DNA of 64,000 nucleotides from an uncultured Gammaproteobacteria bacterium (GTDB taxonomy: Bacteria > Patescibacteriota > Microgenomatia > Daviesbacterales > UBA10151), in contig CAZKCV010000002.1 of assembly GCA_964551605.1 (NCBI GenBank), positions 8,500 through 72,499 of the forward strand, written 5' to 3'. A model generated the notes under the pieces. The model saw only the letters and a program-made list of their open reading frames with translations. It had not been told where the DNA came from and did not search any database. Made by a program: the position numbers and the translations under genes. Positions 3,953 to 31,597 of the stretch are shown one piece after another. The stretch's first letter is position 1. Each line of letters begins with the position of its first letter.

Positions 3953-4586
3953 AGTATTAGGTGCTATTTTAATAGGCACGTTGCTTCTGCTTGTAGGCGG
4001 TATATTTTTACTTAGCCGTGGAAGCTCAGGTCCGGCCGGGATCGAGGGAGCTTCTGTTTCGCAGATTGATTATTCAAAAGGGCAAAAAATCGGCAGTGAC
4101 AGCGCCAAGGTAAAATTGGTAGAGTTTTCCGATTTCCAGTGCCCGGCTTGTGAGGCGGCTGAGCCTTTTGTGAGAAATATCCGCACCAGCTATCCTAATG
4201 ATGTTCAGTTTATTTACCGTCATTTCCCGCTGCCCCAGCATGCCTTTGGCAGGGTAGCCTCAGTTTATGCAGAAGCTGCTGCTCTGCAGGGTAAATTCTG
4301 GGAGATGCATGAGAAGTTGTTTGAAACCCAATCAGAGTGGTCTGTCTTGAGTGAAAAAGAGGCTGCTGAGTATTTCTTAAAGATAGCCAAGGAGCTAGGT
4401 TTAGATGAAAATAAAATTAAAGATCAGGTTAGTGATAGTACTATTCAGGCTAAGATTGACAATGACCTGGCTGAAGGCCGCAATCTAGGGGTTAATTCTA
4501 CCCCGACATTTTTCTTAAACGGCAGAAAGCTTACTTTACAAAGATTTGAGGATTTGAACACCGCGGTTTCGAACGCTCTTAAGTAA
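3936..4586 (+). CDS. DsbA-like thiol:disulfide oxidoreductase (thioredoxin fold), membrane-anchored
   Basis: N-terminal TM anchor, then thioredoxin-like domain with active site FQCPAC. Confidence 0.75.
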   Translation: MKTETKVLGAILIGTLLLLVGGIFLLSRGSSGPAGIEGASVSQIDYSKGQKIGSDSAKVKLVEFSDFQCPACEAAEPFVRNIRTSYPNDVQFIYRHFPLPQHAFGRVASVYAEAAALQGKFWEMHEKLFETQSEWSVLSEKEAAEYFLKIAKELGLDENKIKDQVSDSTIQAKIDNDLAEGRNLGVNSTPTFFLNGRKLTLQRFEDLNTAVSNALK

Positions 4587-26654: not shown

Positions 26655-29600
26655 ATGAAGAAAAGAGCAGATACTACCTCACAAATTATCTCCTTGCCCC
26701 GAACCAGAGGCCGCAGAAAAACTAACGGAGAACACCGTACTAATGGTTTAGATGCAAACGGCCGCAGCTTTGAAACCAGGTTCATGTCCCGTTATAAAAA
26801 AATCCCCTCCCTGCCTGCAGGTTTGCCCGTACCCACTTTTTCCGAAAGCTCCAATAAAATCCTGCAGGAGCGCTACCTTTTAAAAGGCGGCAACTTAGAG
26901 ATAGTAGAAACCATATCCGAGCGGTTTTGGCATATTGCCTATGATATTGCTTCCGGAGACTTTGATTTTAATGTAGCGGAAAAGCAGGTTTCTGATCTGG
27001 CCAAGAAGTTTTATTCCATGATGGTCCATCAGGAATTTTTGCCTAATTCCCCGACCATTATGAATGCCGGAAAACAAAACGGCCTGCAATATTCTGCCTG
27101 TTTTGTATTGCCGGTTGGTGATTCCTTGCCGGAGATTTTTGATTCCATCAAATATGCGGCTTTAATTCACCAGACAGGTGGCGGAACCGGGTTTGCTTTC
27201 TCACGTCTTAGGCCGGCCGGCTCGATTGTCAATACTACCGGCGGAGTAGCTTCCGGACCGGTTTCATTTTTACGGGTTTTCAATGCGGCGACAGAATCCA
27301 TTAAGCAGGGCGGTACCAGAAGGGGAGCCAACATGGGTATTTTGCGGGTGGATCATCCGGATATCCTGGAATTTATCCGTTGTAAGGCCGAACTGGATGA
27401 TCTCAATAAGCCGATTTATGAAGGCATTGCCCCGCTTTTGCCTGACGACTCTGCACGGGAGTATGCAAAAACACTGCTTTTGGACAGACAAATTGCCAAT
27501 TTTAATGTTTCCGTGGCTGCCACCGATAAATTCATGCAGGCAGTTGACAAGGGCGGGGATTATGAATTGATAACTCCTCATAATGGCGAGGTGGTGGGAA
27601 AGCTCAACGCCCGGGAAGTCTTTGATGAGATAATTGAAAGGGCCTGGAAAACCGGTGACCCGGGACTCATTTTCATTGACCGGATTAATGATTCCCCTGC
27701 TAATCCGGTACCCTCCATGGAAACAATTGAAGCTACAAATCCGTGTGTAACCGGGGATGCTTGGGTTCATACTAATGTAGGACCGAGACAAGTATCTGAT
27801 TTAACCGGTAGGCCATTTTTAGCCAGAATTAATGGCCGTGATCATCTCTCCGGCTTGGAAGGATTTTTTAAGACCGGTACAAAAAAAGTCATTAATCTAC
27901 AGACAATTGAAGGGTATGGTCTGCGTTTAACTCCAGATCATTTAATAAGAAAAATTACTTGTGTTGGATCTGATCAGGTTGAATGGACTAAGGCGGGAGA
28001 ATTAAAGATTGGAGATTATATTGAGATAAATAACCATAGGGCAAATAGTCAATGGTCCGGAAAATATACATATAAAGAAGGATATCTCATTGGTTTGTTG
28101 GTGGGTGACGGGACATTGAAAGCAGATAAAGCTGTTTTGTCTGTGTGGGACACTTCTAAATTATCAACAGCAGTACAGCCTAGCGGTGCACAAAGCATGA
28201 TGCAATTTGCTCTTCAGAGTACTGATTCAGTACCCCATCGAAGTGATTTCTCTGGTTGGATGTTTTTGCCTGATAGGAATGAGTATCGGATGGCGCTTGG
28301 GTATGTAAAACATTTAGCTCATGAGTTAGGGATGTATCCGGGCAGAAAAACTATTACAAAAGAAATTGAGAAAGCCTCGAGCGATTTTTATAAAGGTTTT
28401 TTGAGAGGATTATTTGATACTGACGGTTCTGTACAAGGTTATGAAGGCGGACGTGTCAGTATCAGGTTAGCTCAATCTGATTTGCCACTGCTTCAGGCAG
28501 TTCAGAGAATGCTACTGCGTTTAGGGATTTTTTCCCATATTTTTCAGAATAGACGCAAAGCAGGCAAAAAATTGCTGCCCGATGGAAAAGGCGGTTATAA
28601 GGAATATCCGGTTAAAGCACAACATGAACTCTCAATCACCATGGATAACATAGAAGTTTTTAATGAATTAATTGGTTTTGCCAATAGTGAAAAGTCAACA
28701 AAATCAGCACAGAAAATAGCATCTCATAGTACTAGAGGTTTTTACAAACAAAAATTTGCAGCAAGGATAAAAAGTATCGAATTTGAATCTAAAGAGGATG
28801 TTTACGATGTTAGTATACCTAAAGTAAATTATTTTGATGCTAATGGAATAATAGCCCATAATTGTGGCGAGCAACCGCTGGCACCCTGGGATGCCTGTAA
28901 TTTAGGCTCCATTAATTTAGGGAAATTTGTCTATGCTGATGGTTCCGGTGTGGATTTTGAAAAGCTAAAACAGGCCACCCATTTGGCAGTTCATTTTCTG
29001 GACAATGTAGTGCAGACAAATCCTTTCACCCTAAAGCAAATTTATGATGAAGTGCGCCAAAACCGGAGAATCGGTTTAGGGGTAATGGGTTTTGCCGATA
29101 TGCTGTTTAAGCTAAAAACCCCCTATAATTCTGATGAGGCTCTTGAGCTGGCTGAAAAAATAATGCAGTTTATTAATGACGAGGGCCATAAAAAATCAGA
29201 AGAGTTGGCTAAAGAGCGGGGTGCCTTCCCGAACTGGGTACATTCTATCTACGCTGACAGGGAAGCTTCGGCTTTCAAGAACAGGCCGGCTGCCTATGCT
29301 TACCAGGGAGGAAGAAAAATCAGAAATTCTACCGTGACTACTATTGCTCCTACGGGTACGATTTCCATTATCGGAGACTGTTCATCCGGCATTGAGCCGG
29401 TCTTTGCTTTGGCCTATATTCACAAAGCTAAAGCCAAAGGAGATCAGTATCGAATTCTGACGATTGCCAACCAAACTTTTACGGATATTGCCAAAAGGGA
29501 AGGTTTTTATAGTGATGACCTGGCTGCAAAGGTGCTGGAACACGGGTCAGTCATCGGTGTAACTGAGATGCCGGAGCAGTGGCAAAAGGTGTTTGTAACG

Positions 29601-30392
29601 GCCCAGGAGATTGACCCGGTCTGGCATGTTAAGATGCAGGCTGCATTTCAGCGGTTTACGGATAATGGCGTGTCTAAAACTATCAACCTACCGAATTCCG
29701 CTACCAAAGATGATGTGGCCCTGGCTTACCAGATGGCCTATGACACCGGCTGTAATGGGATCACCATTTACCGGGATGGTTCCAAGTCTACGCAGGTGTT
29801 AAATGTTTCATCCAGTCTTAATAAATCTGTTGAAGATCCGGCAGCTCCGGTGGCTGAGCGGCCCATGATCCTAAGGGGCCGGACTTATAAAATTTCTACT
29901 CCGGTGGGAGAAGCTTTTATTACCGTTAACCGGGATATAGCTGACCAGCCGTTTGAGGTCTTTGTCACAGTGGGCCGGGCCGGCATGCATACTATGGCAG
30001 ATGCGGAAGCCATGGGTAGGTTGGTTTCATTATCTTTGAGATTGGCCAGGGGAGCCAAAGAAACAGATCCCAAGGCCGTAGCCTTAAAGATTGTCGGGCA
30101 GCTTCGGGGGATCGGGGGAGCCTTAAGTGTAGGGTTTGGCAAAAACCGGGTGCAGAGTTTGGCAGATGCTATTGCCAAAGTCCTGGCAGAAGATTTGGCT
30201 CTGACTCCGGAAGAACGCCAGGTAGAAGCTATTCCATTGGATTTAGCCGTAAACGGAGATCCGGCACCGCTGTCAACCAATAGTGAATTCCCGGCTACCA
30301 ATGCTGATTTGTGTCCTGAGTGCGGTTCAGCCTCCTTTGTGATGGAAGAAGGCTGTAAGAAATGTCATTCGTGTGGCTATAGTATGTGCTGA
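26655..30392 (+). CDS. nrdJ: adenosylcobalamin-dependent (class II) ribonucleotide reductase, intein-containing
   Basis: Class II RNR blocks (active-site NPC|GEQPLAPWDACNLGSINL). C-terminal Cys-rich tail (CPECGS...CKKCHSCGYSMC). 373-aa in-frame insertion at the catalytic Cys. Alternative start ATG 26784. Confidence 0.85.
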   Translation: MKKRADTTSQIISLPRTRGRRKTNGEHRTNGLDANGRSFETRFMSRYKKIPSLPAGLPVPTFSESSNKILQERYLLKGGNLEIVETISERFWHIAYDIASGDFDFNVAEKQVSDLAKKFYSMMVHQEFLPNSPTIMNAGKQNGLQYSACFVLPVGDSLPEIFDSIKYAALIHQTGGGTGFAFSRLRPAGSIVNTTGGVASGPVSFLRVFNAATESIKQGGTRRGANMGILRVDHPDILEFIRCKAELDDLNKPIYEGIAPLLPDDSAREYAKTLLLDRQIANFNVSVAATDKFMQAVDKGGDYELITPHNGEVVGKLNAREVFDEIIERAWKTGDPGLIFIDRINDSPANPVPSMETIEATNPCVTGDAWVHTNVGPRQVSDLTGRPFLARINGRDHLSGLEGFFKTGTKKVINLQTIEGYGLRLTPDHLIRKITCVGSDQVEWTKAGELKIGDYIEINNHRANSQWSGKYTYKEGYLIGLLVGDGTLKADKAVLSVWDTSKLSTAVQPSGAQSMMQFALQSTDSVPHRSDFSGWMFLPDRNEYRMALGYVKHLAHELGMYPGRKTITKEIEKASSDFYKGFLRGLFDTDGSVQGYEGGRVSIRLAQSDLPLLQAVQRMLLRLGIFSHIFQNRRKAGKKLLPDGKGGYKEYPVKAQHELSITMDNIEVFNELIGFANSEKSTKSAQKIASHSTRGFYKQKFAARIKSIEFESKEDVYDVSIPKVNYFDANGIIAHNCGEQPLAPWDACNLGSINLGKFVYADGSGVDFEKLKQATHLAVHFLDNVVQTNPFTLKQIYDEVRQNRRIGLGVMGFADMLFKLKTPYNSDEALELAEKIMQFINDEGHKKSEELAKERGAFPNWVHSIYADREASAFKNRPAAYAYQGGRKIRNSTVTTIAPTGTISIIGDCSSGIEPVFALAYIHKAKAKGDQYRILTIANQTFTDIAKREGFYSDDLAAKVLEHGSVIGVTEMPEQWQKVFVTAQEIDPVWHVKMQAAFQRFTDNGVSKTINLPNSATKDDVALAYQMAYDTGCNGITIYRDGSKSTQVLNVSSSLNKSVEDPAAPVAERPMILRGRTYKISTPVGEAFITVNRDIADQPFEVFVTVGRAGMHTMADAEAMGRLVSLSLRLARGAKETDPKAVALKIVGQLRGIGGALSVGFGKNRVQSLADAIAKVLAEDLALTPEERQVEAIPLDLAVNGDPAPLSTNSEFPATNADLCPECGSASFVMEEGCKKCHSCGYSMC
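27744..28862 (+). mobile_element. intein with LAGLIDADG homing-endonuclease domain inserted at NP|C-GEQ of nrdJ
   Basis: Begins with Cys (CVTGDAWVHT), ends with HN followed by Cys (IIAHN|CGEQ). Two LAGLIDADG-type motifs (YLIGLLVGDGT, FLRGLFDTDGS). Removing it restores the canonical NPCGEQ motif. Confidence 0.8.
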
Positions 30393-30540
30393 CATTTCTT
30401 GCGAAATCTTCGCTTGTTATTGTAATCGTTGTTACAATAACGGCTACGATGTTCTTAAGAACTTGCTCACAAGTTCGCAAGACCTTGCGACAGCAGGCTG
30501 TCTTAAAAAGTGTCATTCGTGTGGCTATTCAATGTGTTAA
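30393..30540 (+). repeat. palindrome-dense ~100-nt element followed by a recoded duplicate of the last ~14 nrdJ codons
   Basis: 30496-30540 encodes GC-L-KKCHSCGYSMC*, matching nrdJ 30351-30392 (GCKKCHSCGYSMC*) with only synonymous changes plus one extra codon. Between the copies lie nested inverted repeats (cttgcgaa/ttcgcaag; ttattgtaa/ttacaataa; gttcttaagaac). Confidence 0.6.
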
Positions 30541-30804: not shown

Positions 30805-30813
30805 CTTTCTATC

Positions 30814-31566
30814 CCGAGGTGTCAATACACTTCCACCCCCGAGGTGGAAGCACGAATTAATCTTCGCTATCCAATAGTTGGTGTTTAATTACCTCCAACT
30901 TTTGTGCATAGTCAATTTGGTCATCAACGAACTTTTTGTAATCCATTACAGATTGAAAGAAATTGAGAATTTCTTTCTTTGTGCACATCCCTTTGCCATT
31001 AAGGTATTCATTATAAGACGACCATTCGTAATCTTCTGGCTTCTTAACTAGAAATGACGAGACAGGGTTTAAATGGATATACCGAGAGACATGGATTAAT
31101 TGTTCATCCGATTCTATTAGAACCGCTTTAAATTGTCCTTGCAATAGAGGTCCGACTCTGTCGAACTTAACATTATAGTATTTAGTATAACTATTGGTCA
31201 GTTTGCCGATGAATTCACTTACACCATTTTCTTTTAATTGTTTAATGAGAAAATGGAAATGATTAGGCATTAGGCAATAACAGATAATTTCAACAATCTT
31301 TTTATCAGGATCTGGCTCAAATAATTTGTATTTGATAAAGTTAGAAAACTTTGGTTTAGGTCCTTCTAATTGATAATAACCGATTGCCTGTAAAAACCTT
31401 GTGTAGGTTCTTCTATTTTCAAAAATCCGTCTTTTTTCCACTCCACGGTTGTATACGTGATAAAACTGACCATTAATTAGCGGAGTAATTCTATTTGGCA
31501 TATGAGATCAGAATAACTAAAAATTACCGAGGTGTCAATACACTTCCACCCCCGAGGTGGAAGCAC
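30814..31566 (-). mobile_element. RAYT/IS200-like element: Y1 HUH transposase gene bracketed by identical 40-bp hairpin-containing direct repeats
   Basis: Repeats at 30814-30853 and 31527-31566 (ccgaggtgtcaatacacttccacccccgaggtggaagcac), each with an internal hairpin cttccacc/ggtggaag. They flank ORF 30857..31501. Confidence 0.65.
30857..31501 (-). CDS. REP-associated tyrosine transposase (RAYT) / IS200-family Y1 HUH transposase
   Basis: Signature LMPNHFHFLI (HUH motif) and catalytic Tyr in YIHLNPV (the NPV variant typical of RAYTs). 214 aa. Confidence 0.7.
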   Translation of the reverse strand: MPNRITPLINGQFYHVYNRGVEKRRIFENRRTYTRFLQAIGYYQLEGPKPKFSNFIKYKLFEPDPDKKIVEIICYCLMPNHFHFLIKQLKENGVSEFIGKLTNSYTKYYNVKFDRVGPLLQGQFKAVLIESDEQLIHVSRYIHLNPVSSFLVKKPEDYEWSSYNEYLNGKGMCTKKEILNFFQSVMDYKKFVDDQIDYAQKLEVIKHQLLDSED

Positions 31567-31597
31567 AAATTGAAGAGTTCTTTGTTAGAATAAGCTC

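Follow-up and report, generated by a model that had tools for sequence, protein, structure and literature searches.

The 64-kb window considered here (the whole stretch of DNA analysed, 64,000 nucleotides (nt) from an uncultivated bacterium of the candidate phyla radiation (CPR)) carries nrdJ, the gene for a class II (B12-dependent) ribonucleotide reductase (RNR), and at the 3' end of this gene a compact array of hairpins and repeated coding sequence (30357-30540). The array probably belongs to a family of site-preferring, self-compensating and protein-less hairpin mini-cassettes residing at the nrdJ 3' end, where they have been stacked and reshuffled by recombination between copies of the terminal codons of the gene, hereafter the tails. 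Such cassettes would be, or would recently have been, horizontally mobile and selfish or neutral, and would be tolerated because the gene end is replaced. A sequence-only reading had proposed that a small element inserted close to the nrdJ stop codon, brought a replacement C-terminus and left the old tail stranded downstream; this proposal finds support, but the array consists of two cassettes and its tails are recombination mosaics.

The nrdJ gene (26655-30392, plus strand) was delineated from its open reading frame (ORF), its homologues and its Pfam matches, namely Ribonuc_red_lgC, Ribonuc_red_lgN, TSCPD, Intein_splicing and LAGLIDADG_3. Homologues named as nrdJ of Ca. Daviesbacteria reach 90% identity, which assigns the window to that group (Microgenomates, CPR), and an exact look-up of the window protein returned no record. 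NrdJ ends in a conserved Cys-rich tail (...EEGCKKCHSCGYSMC, then stop), a close variant of which terminates nearly all of the C-terminally complete proteins among the 120 NrdJ homologues listed. For comparison, 79 nrdJ 3' loci (cited by L numbers) came from a scan with one genome per species, about 60 of them being usable Daviesbacteria-like loci.

The last 11 codons of nrdJ with their stop (30357-30392, KKCHSCGYSMC plus stop) recur at 30505-30540, in the +1 frame relative to the gene. The two tails exhibit six differences over 33 sense nt, all of them synonymous, one being a Ser AGT/TCA switch, and among 100,000 simulations of six random substitutions none kept the peptide unchanged (P<1e-5), in line with the earlier judgement that a chance match was unlikely. 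When the repeat is taken from 30351 to 30392 (GGCTGT AAGAAATGTCATTCGTGTGGCTATAGTATGTGCTGA) and from 30496 to 30540 (GGCTGT CTT AAAAAGTGTCATTCGTGTGGCTATTCAATGTGTTAA), both stretches translate as (GC)(L)KKCHSCGYSMC plus stop, from which a duplicate of about 14 codons with one extra codon had been deduced. While the synonymous recurrence itself holds, the repeat starts at the two Lys codons AAR AAR (30357 and 30505) and covers 11 codons. The GGCTGT of the second copy is no coding duplicate, as it belongs to the hairpin GACAGC/GCTGTC of a short core (see below) and is replaced by AGCTGT in L082 and by GGTC in L040 and L080, and the supposed extra Leu codon CTT corresponds to the closing C of the core plus its TT; the additional GC and L codons are thus supplied by the short core.

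Read on the plus strand, the array comprises three units, namely unit 1 (30357-30456), a tail-less unit 2 (30457-30504) and an ancestral tail. Unit 1 opens with tail 1 (30357-30392), the translated, cassette-associated copy in frame with nrdJ, which constitutes the 5' arm and the loop of hairpin 1 and whose 3' end AGTATGTGCTGA is common to tail 1 of L082. The post-stop arm TGACATTTCTT (30390-30400) overlaps the TGA stop and is the exact reverse complement of tail nt 1-11, AAGAAATGTCA (30357-30367); hairpin 1 is complementary at 11/11 positions around a 22-nt loop, with a DNA fold z of -4.0. Then comes the 56-nt long ('A') core (30401-30456), with a GCGAAatcTTCGC mini-hairpin, an inner hairpin GTTATTGTAA/TTACAATAAC and finally GGCTACGATGTTCTT, for which the DNA fold z is -4.4. 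Unit 2 begins with a hairpin-1 remnant (30457-30486), which starts AAGAAC like a tail, has lost the coding loop and reads AAGAACTTG-ctca-CAAGTTC followed by GCAAGACCTT; a full tail and arm occupy this position in L082 (AAAAAGTGCC...TAG GCACTTCTT), and a small hairpin resembling the remnant, AAGACTTG/CAAGTCTT, precedes a core copy at the lon promoter of L043. The short ('B') core GCGACAGCAGGCTGTCTT (30487-30504), composed of GC, the hairpin GACAGC/GCTGTC and TT, folds as a hairpin and also comes after tail 1 of L005 and tail 2 of L082. The last tail (30505-30540), a displaced ancestral copy of 11 codons plus stop, is untranslated and has no complementary arm after it, and its 3' flank (TAAtt.tg.ta.a ... 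start codon and aaacaaaag of a gene for an 81-aa protein) is collinear with the empty site of L085.

The same three-unit layout is found in L082, which is about 91-98% identical to the window upstream: tail 1 with its arm and a long core (55/56 identical), a full-tailed unit with the short core GCGACAGCAGGCTGTCTT and a last tail. As the middle tail of the window is replaced by a short hairpin, the palindrome-dense 100 nt between the two tails amount to one and a half cassettes; what had been regarded as one element is the rest of unit 1 (30390-30456) plus the second, tail-less unit (30457-30504). The inverted repeats listed beforehand are present (I2, I3 and I5), but the list missed the key repeat AAGAAATGTCA/TGACATTTCTT across the stop codon. 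The stretch 30373-30540 also holds a spurious ORF of 55 aa (GTG start, +1 frame) running through core and tail 2 and ending ...KKCHSCGYSMC. A protein-database search with the small core-plus-tail ORF retrieved no homologue, which implies that gene callers do not report such ORFs; these could be mis-annotated as small Cys-rich proteins.

Altogether, 11 distinct nrdJ loci of Ca. Daviesbacteria carry two to six tails, spaced 59-148 nt, so that the further element copies called for by the sequence-only reading exist at ten other nrdJ loci. Extra tails are present in seven of about 60 species representatives (two each in L005, L010, L015, L040, L043 and L048, six in L055). The degenerate DNA pattern 'CTW + tail', run on 241 million metagenome records, added three matches, L080 together with L081 and L082, the last two being the same sequence (three tails); viral contigs yielded neither the secondary-tail pattern nor the core pattern. 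Two tails are also present in L087 (P0001, 90% aa identity), one of the two closest relatives of the window. The tail-less unit of the window is the sole one of its kind in these contiguous arrays, with the caveat that tails were counted by a degenerate pattern, which heavily decayed copies could escape. As regards assembly, the nrdJ tail regions of two species representatives are masked as N (L052, ~4505-4516; L062, 4312-4413), and the contigs of L026 (at its end) and P0071 end within the tail; assemblies possibly break at tail repeats.

The order of parts is constant across units: a 36-nt tail, 0-6 nt, the reverse complement of the first 8-14 nt of the tail, GCG(A), an optional inner hairpin, ...(T)CTT and then the next tail. 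A cassette unit measures 59-106 nt and contains no ORF, the insertion point directly precedes the codon for the first Lys in the resident tail (TGY/AAR AAR, the slash marking the point), and all cores take the form GC-[GA...TC hairpin]-TT. A single long palindrome extends over the arm, the core and the opening 11 nt of the following tail. Except in L040, no post-stop arm follows the final tail of an array, nor does one follow the stop of any single-tail locus. Cores homologous to the long core of the window, L082 and L015 occur in L087, L010, L048 and L055 (three types in the latter), and the alignment of these homologous long cores (A3) has 78% column identity. A covariance model of the long core (R1) was run on the 64-kb window with filters off and on 616 kb of nrdJ-centred loci; it matched the nrdJ-end site alone within the window and, in the 616 kb, 12 of 13 long-core copies lie at nrdJ (L081 and L082 being one sequence and the sample being centred on this gene). 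The window therefore has a single cassette site: a second copy of the spacer, sought by pattern, blastn and the covariance model with filters off, was not found there, and nrdJ is its only gene with both a recurring C-terminus and a stop-bridging hairpin of at least 10 nt, one borderline 9-nt arm occurring elsewhere.

The hairpins are under constraint. In the 12-pair stem that joins tail nt 1-12 to the post-stop arm, pairing reaches 96.9% across 16 units and drops to 40-56% if one arm is slid, and compensatory double changes affect five stem positions, e.g. AAGAAATGTCA/TGACATTTCTT, AAAAAGTGC/GCACTTTTT and AAGAAATGCTA/TAGCATTTCTT. The hairpin 1 stem contains one G-U in 161 cells, a near-absence more consistent with a palindrome at the DNA level, or a templated one, than with a helix selected as RNA. 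The inner hairpin of the long cores covaries too, as do the closing stems, namely GAGAAT/ATTCTC, GATAAC/GTTATC and GATATT/AATATC (L055), as well as GACAGC/GCTGTC and GACC/GGTC in the short cores.

Empty sites, which it had been suggested to look for, do exist, including in the closest relative P0002 (L083-L086, 11 contigs), where a gene for an 81-aa membrane protein lies 18 nt past the stop and the flank is collinear with that of the last tail of the window. The tail of the nearest empty-site relative differs from tail 1 of the window at 11/33 nt and from its last tail at 8/33; throughout the clade of the window, first tails are 10-11/33 nt away from the empty-site tail and later tails 5-8/33. 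First tails also bear traits found at a minority of empty sites: TGT precedes them in 10/11 cases, AAG is their first Lys codon in 9/11, and in the six long-core units AGY invariably encodes the second Ser and, in four of them, the first Ser as well. Some single-tail loci, e.g. L002, present such a cassette-type tail with no cassette, which is what loss through tail-tail recombination would leave.

Regarding selection, setting each of 16 secondary tails against the primary tail of its own locus gives 90 synonymous and 3 nonsynonymous codon differences, vs. about 87 nonsynonymous ones expected at random, so that the protein-level selection first suspected from the two window copies extends to a larger sample. 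Changes at codon positions 1 and 2 of secondary tails are almost all TCN/AGY Ser switches, which points to constraint on the amino-acid sequence rather than on a nucleotide recognition site and means that every tail copy descends from a translated nrdJ terminus. The primary tails are intact in 11/11 loci and the defects are confined to displaced copies (window unit 2, Y>C in L048, M>I and K>N in L055), which fits relaxed constraint after displacement. The two tails of L015 differ at 13/36 positions, all synonymous; with differences of this extent inside one genome, a simple target-site duplication, already disfavoured by the sequence-only reading, does not account for the repeats.

Besides, the tails of one array are related to each other in a patchwork manner. 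The first and last tails of the window share an identical 18-nt middle TGTCATTCGTGTGGCTAT, the first and third tails of L082 share AAATGTCATAGCTGTGGTTA, and all tail copies of one array carry the His or Tyr of the host clade at tail position 4, which indicates that recombination or gene conversion between tails is frequent. Such exchange between tails can explain how units are lost, how tails and cores come to be reassorted and, to some extent, why the silent copies remain coding. Movement between lineages is suggested by the 56-nt core, identical at 56/56 positions in the window and in L015 while the last 1.3 kb of nrdJ are 73% identical in these two genomes; at 77-86% identity to the cores of L010 and L048, the long core is not invariant. 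Similarly, tail 1 and its arm are 36/36 identical between L005 and L087, vs. 39/51 for the 51 nt upstream, and the last tails and core types of these loci differ. Occupancy is patchy, since the two closest relatives of the window differ in this respect and distant lineages with Tyr for His at tail position 4 also carry arrays. A search for a co-conversion breakpoint upstream of the tail (window vs. L015) was uninformative, the last ~50 nt of nrdJ being highly conserved in all pairs.

The favoured scenario would unfold as follows. A cassette would land just ahead of the two Lys codons with which the resident tail opens, bringing a surrogate made of 11 codons and a stop; the gene-proximal copy is read in frame, so that NrdJ keeps its Cys-rich C-terminus, and the resident tail would be pushed downstream and remain untranslated. 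The inverted copy at the stop would turn the tail into the 5' arm and loop of a hairpin. Repeated gains would build up arrays of up to six tails, among which tail-tail recombination would delete, reshuffle and partly homogenise units, the displaced tails eventually decaying. In the window, a unit with a long core would have come to lie in front of an older short-core unit 2, whose tail would have been lost, followed by the ancestral tail. As for the insertion itself, the most likely route would be recombination using the tail or a single-strand hairpin as attachment site, with an enzyme provided in trans, because arrays, mosaics and the reassortment of modules are all in keeping with it. A template-switch or snap-back duplication at insertion would explain both the target-specific duplicated segment and the matching arm, at the price of gene conversion or allele exchange to account for the synonymous divergence; the two routes are compatible.

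This architecture is not restricted to nrdJ. A scan of all loci sequence for recurring C-terminal peptides retrieved nrdJ and one other gene, nrdR in L039, located just upstream of nrdJ, where KELANLKLEE plus stop is followed by a 23-nt arm and mini-core and then by a recoded KELANLKLEEY plus stop (1959-2036). Seven nt differ over the ten shared codons, all synonymously, the post-stop arm GAGTTCGTT approximates the reverse complement of AAAGAACTC, with which the segment starts, and the core GAAAGCTTCGCTT is identical to the start of the long core at 12/13 positions. The model R1 recovered all the nrdJ-linked copies and one more, upstream of lon on the minus strand of L043 (4040-4139). There, the arm CAAGTCTT pairs with AAGACTTG located 6 nt upstream, and the core is inserted between two copies of the -35 region, one of which, TTGACAAGTCTT, stands by an operator (TTAGCACTC-N9-TAGTGCTAA) resembling CIRCE (controlling inverted repeat of chaperone expression) at exactly the native spacing, the copy on the far side, TTGACAACATTT, being identical to the native sequence of L046. 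The target segment duplicated around arm and core thus measures 36 nt at nrdJ, 33 nt at nrdR and about 12 nt at the lon promoter.

Several observations weigh against the view of a cassette family importing its own surrogate tail. Three targets with one architecture are hard to fit with an element carrying a ready-made surrogate, and rather suggest that insertion itself creates the duplication and perhaps also the arm; the exclusively synonymous divergence would then require gene conversion or allele exchange. The import of the first copy is not universal either, since the first tail of L048 looks host-like and the second one foreign and damaged. Cassette boundaries are not sharp, the tails being mosaics, and with just three additional matches among the metagenome records the family appears rare and its activity unproven. 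Moreover, the cassettes encode nothing and no enzyme acting on them was identified. The nearest candidate, an IS200-like Y1_Tnp gene (30857-31501, opposite to cobA) 320 nt downstream of the array, shows no association with cassettes, as Y1_Tnp lies downstream in 4/9 assessable occupied loci vs. 26 of about 61 overall. This gene has its own flanking direct repeats (30813-30853 and 31528-31567; 33-40 nt, identical over at least 33 nt, with a hairpin CTTCCACC/GGTGGAAG), which are unrelated to the cassette and occur in the window only those two times.

Taking up the three targets, it is possible, although rather unlikely on the whole, that the cassettes form a new class of self-healing miniature elements whose arm (consensus CAnnTCTT) serves as DNA guide to, or hairpin partner of, an AAGAnnTG-like target, insertion duplicating 12-36 nt of any functional sequence that is hit and thereby restoring function, the displaced copies then forming a chronological stack.

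Local rearrangement with no mobility at all, i.e. snap-back or template switch at quasi-palindromes (of the tandem-inversion-duplication or slippage type) that would leave the arm as a short inverted remnant and be followed by gene conversion with the translated copy, is unlikely, yet it would account for several traits: the succession of a direct, a short inverted and a direct copy, the arm ending exactly at the duplication boundary, the long palindrome made of arm, core and next-tail start, the duplicated length varying with the target (36, 33 and ~12 nt), the identical 18-20-nt middle of first and last tails within the window and within L082, and the almost complete lack of G-U in the stem, as templated copying predicts. 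It meets difficulties with the cores at nrdJ, nrdR and the lon promoter, which are homologous to each other and not to the local sequence, with the 56/56 core identity in hosts that are 27% diverged and with the identical tail 1 and arm of L005 and L087. The 13/36 all-synonymous differences between the L015 tails are not predicted by duplication in place, and the closest relatives differ in occupancy.

Slightly less probable still is a non-autonomous element of the IS200/IS605 type (palindrome-associated transposable element, PATE) or related to repetitive extragenic palindromes (REP), in which the core GCGA...TTCTT would be the transposon, TTCTT the target or cleavage motif, and an HUH Y1 transposase or a REP-associated tyrosine transposase (RAYT), e.g. 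the Y1_Tnp found 320 nt downstream, the enzyme moving it as single-stranded DNA. The structures are indeed hairpins only, both core junctions read ...TTCTT (cattTCTT/GCGA and gtTCTT/AAGAA, the slash marking the junction), the inner hairpin of all long cores stands at a constant 14-15 nt from each junction, the cores reassort independently of the tails, and Y1_Tnp adjoins the array in the window, L005, L010 and L015. Against this stand the frequency of Y1_Tnp, no higher at occupied loci than overall, and its unrelated flanking repeats, both given above. Furthermore, IS200/IS605 elements make no target duplication, TTCTT is missing from the top strand of the empty nrdJ site where the cassette would insert, and the short cores, with 15-18 nt, are too small to accommodate two end hairpins.

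A host-beneficial structure of the 3' untranslated region (UTR), stabilising or terminating the nrdJ transcript as REP sequences or terminators do and with extra tails as by-products, seems improbable as the full explanation, although it may be an added role. Strong hairpins begin precisely at the stop, GCGAAATCTTCGC and the T-rich run after it make one weak 5-bp terminator-like site (30401-30413), and nrdJ, cobA and lon are co-oriented. However, the structure is absent from about 88% of the species, including the closest relative, there is no U-tract after hairpin 1 and almost no G-U in its stem. Rfam gave no match at the gathering threshold in L039, L043, L048, L055, L082 and L087, and nothing relevant at E<=10 around the window site; a known RNA family was rejected on this basis, and an intrinsic terminator on the single weak candidate. 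The structured 3'-UTR RNA that had been put forward as an alternative also leaves the recoded and displaced tails, the arrays of up to six, the patchy distribution and the promoter copy on the other strand unexplained.

Translational recoding of the second tail (bypass, frameshift or readthrough) or an assembly artefact joining strain variants is very improbable: there is a superficial likeness to T4 gene 60 in the stop-proximal hairpins and the matching take-off and landing sequences, and every occupied sequence comes from a metagenome assembly, but nothing is missing from the first tail, the secondary tails have no consistent frame (+1 in the window, +2 in L005, mixed in L055) and the arrays were recovered from separate projects and samples assembled independently, the spacer sequence between tails being unique. 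Three further candidates were rejected, namely a diversity-generating retroelement (differences made of third-position changes and Ser-codon switches with no adenine bias, no reverse transcriptase identified among the flanking genes), a CRISPR array (repeats differing at up to 13/36 positions, spacers that are homologous structured cores recurring within L055, no cas nearby) and integron attC sites (no intI nearby, no RYYYAAC/GTTRRRY core sites).

The genes flanking nrdJ encode a cyclophilin-type isomerase, the 81-aa membrane protein, Y1_Tnp, a cobalamin adenosyltransferase (CobA) and Lon. In every locus that has it, Y1_Tnp immediately precedes cobA and points the other way. No integrase was found among the neighbourhood genes of the array, and Pfam searches on the genes between array and cobA in L040, L043, L048 and L055 revealed no recombinase. 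A GIY-YIG gene of about 97 aa is present in the nrdJ-cobA gap of three loci (L087, 5225-5600; L001, 3800-4500; L008, 5130-5540), just one of which is occupied (L087, i.e. 1/11 occupied loci), the gene lying there outside the repeats; in L001 and L008 it is flanked by GTCATTGCGAGGAGCGAAGCGACGAAGCAATC-type repeats. The nrdJ-cobA gap is a hot spot for several unrelated small selfish elements. Between array and cobA, L043 (923-2290) and L048 (5054-6493) also encode a protein of 455-479 aa with no Pfam match, whose end, CxxC...GGCGxCxxC, recalls the Cys-rich tail of NrdJ; the leader before this gene is conserved and possibly structured (...cactgtgccgcaaccgta...), with no Rfam match. Within nrdJ itself, the segment ~27860-28865 of the window (NrdJ aa ~403-736) is an intein with a LAGLIDADG homing-endonuclease domain, and the closest homologues (868-872 aa) have no intein.

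Self-compensating integration is known for kilobase-sized elements endowed with their own integrase or homing endonuclease. Here, the same logic would operate in 59-106 nt of gene-less DNA on an essential gene, nrdJ being the sole RNR of these organisms with very small genomes. The cassettes offer a tractable case for how protein-less DNA gains site preference and harmlessness, and runs of recoded gene ends can record past invasions and inter-lineage recombination in uncultivated CPR bacteria. For annotators, such repeats break assemblies and create spurious small ORFs. If the hairpin arm does specify the target, this would amount to a new principle of targeting. It is a serious possibility that the cassettes represent a new mechanism. 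They do not share the features that define the known families: they have neither a recombinase nor an endonuclease gene, their target-site duplication is of no fixed length, all but one of the long-core copies detected lie at nrdJ, and Y1 ends matching them were not found; the literature search retrieved no description of such an arrangement.

Among known systems, integrative elements restoring the 3' end of the gene that they enter, such as tRNA/tmRNA islands and the lambdoid prophages e14 and phage 21 in icd, come to mind first. Like the cassettes, they sit in the 3' end of an essential gene, supply a surrogate end with synonymous differences and leave the old end downstream as a direct repeat, repeated integration resulting in tandem accretion; correspondingly, tails as direct repeats of the 3' end flank every cassette unit and the gene stays intact. 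They are kilobases long with a tyrosine or serine integrase beside att, whereas the cassettes have 59-106 nt, no ORF and an inverted copy of the att-like sequence that forms a hairpin. The likeness to elements integrated at tRNA genes, already drawn from the window sequence, is accordingly a functional one, but it does not extend to an integrase, which the cassette lacks. In fungal mitochondria, C-terminal partial duplications of cob and atp6 stand beside free-standing homing-endonuclease ORFs in Endoconidiophora (PMC6279837). These duplications share with the cassettes a selfish 3'-end insertion where a second C-terminal coding copy keeps the gene functional, but they flank endonuclease genes while nothing is encoded between the nrdJ tails. 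The LAGLIDADG domain of the nrdJ intein lies 1.5 kb upstream of the tails.

Small palindromic repeats include miniature inverted-repeat transposable elements (MITEs), REP/REPIN, Correia, ERIC and the Rickettsia palindromic elements inserted in ORFs. As the cassettes, MITEs and palindromic repeats are about 50-150 nt long, non-coding, of long hairpin potential and tolerated in or beside genes, and the arm, core and next-tail start of the cassettes resemble MITE terminal inverted repeats around a core. Unlike in a MITE, there is no short fixed target-site duplication, the flanking duplication of 12-36 nt being target-dependent with non-identical copies; the inverted repeat is built from the coding sequence of the target itself, and the duplicated functional stretch is kept functional. 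Dispersal may differ as well, with one site in the 64-kb window and one non-nrdJ copy in the 616 kb of nrdJ-centred loci. The polymorphic toxins Rhs and CdiA are known for C-terminal displacement arrays with orphan tips, where incoming modules, as here, replace the gene end at a conserved junction and untranslated former termini stack in order; yet those tips are different proteins (new toxins) of hundreds of codons, while the nrdJ tips all encode the same 11 residues. Finally, CRISPR and integron cassette arrays resemble the nrdJ arrays in their repeats of about 36 nt, spacers of 23-64 nt and degenerate or odd terminal unit, and the hairpin-forming nrdJ units recall integron attC sites, but the nrdJ repeats differ at synonymous positions and their spacers are recurring homologous structured cores.

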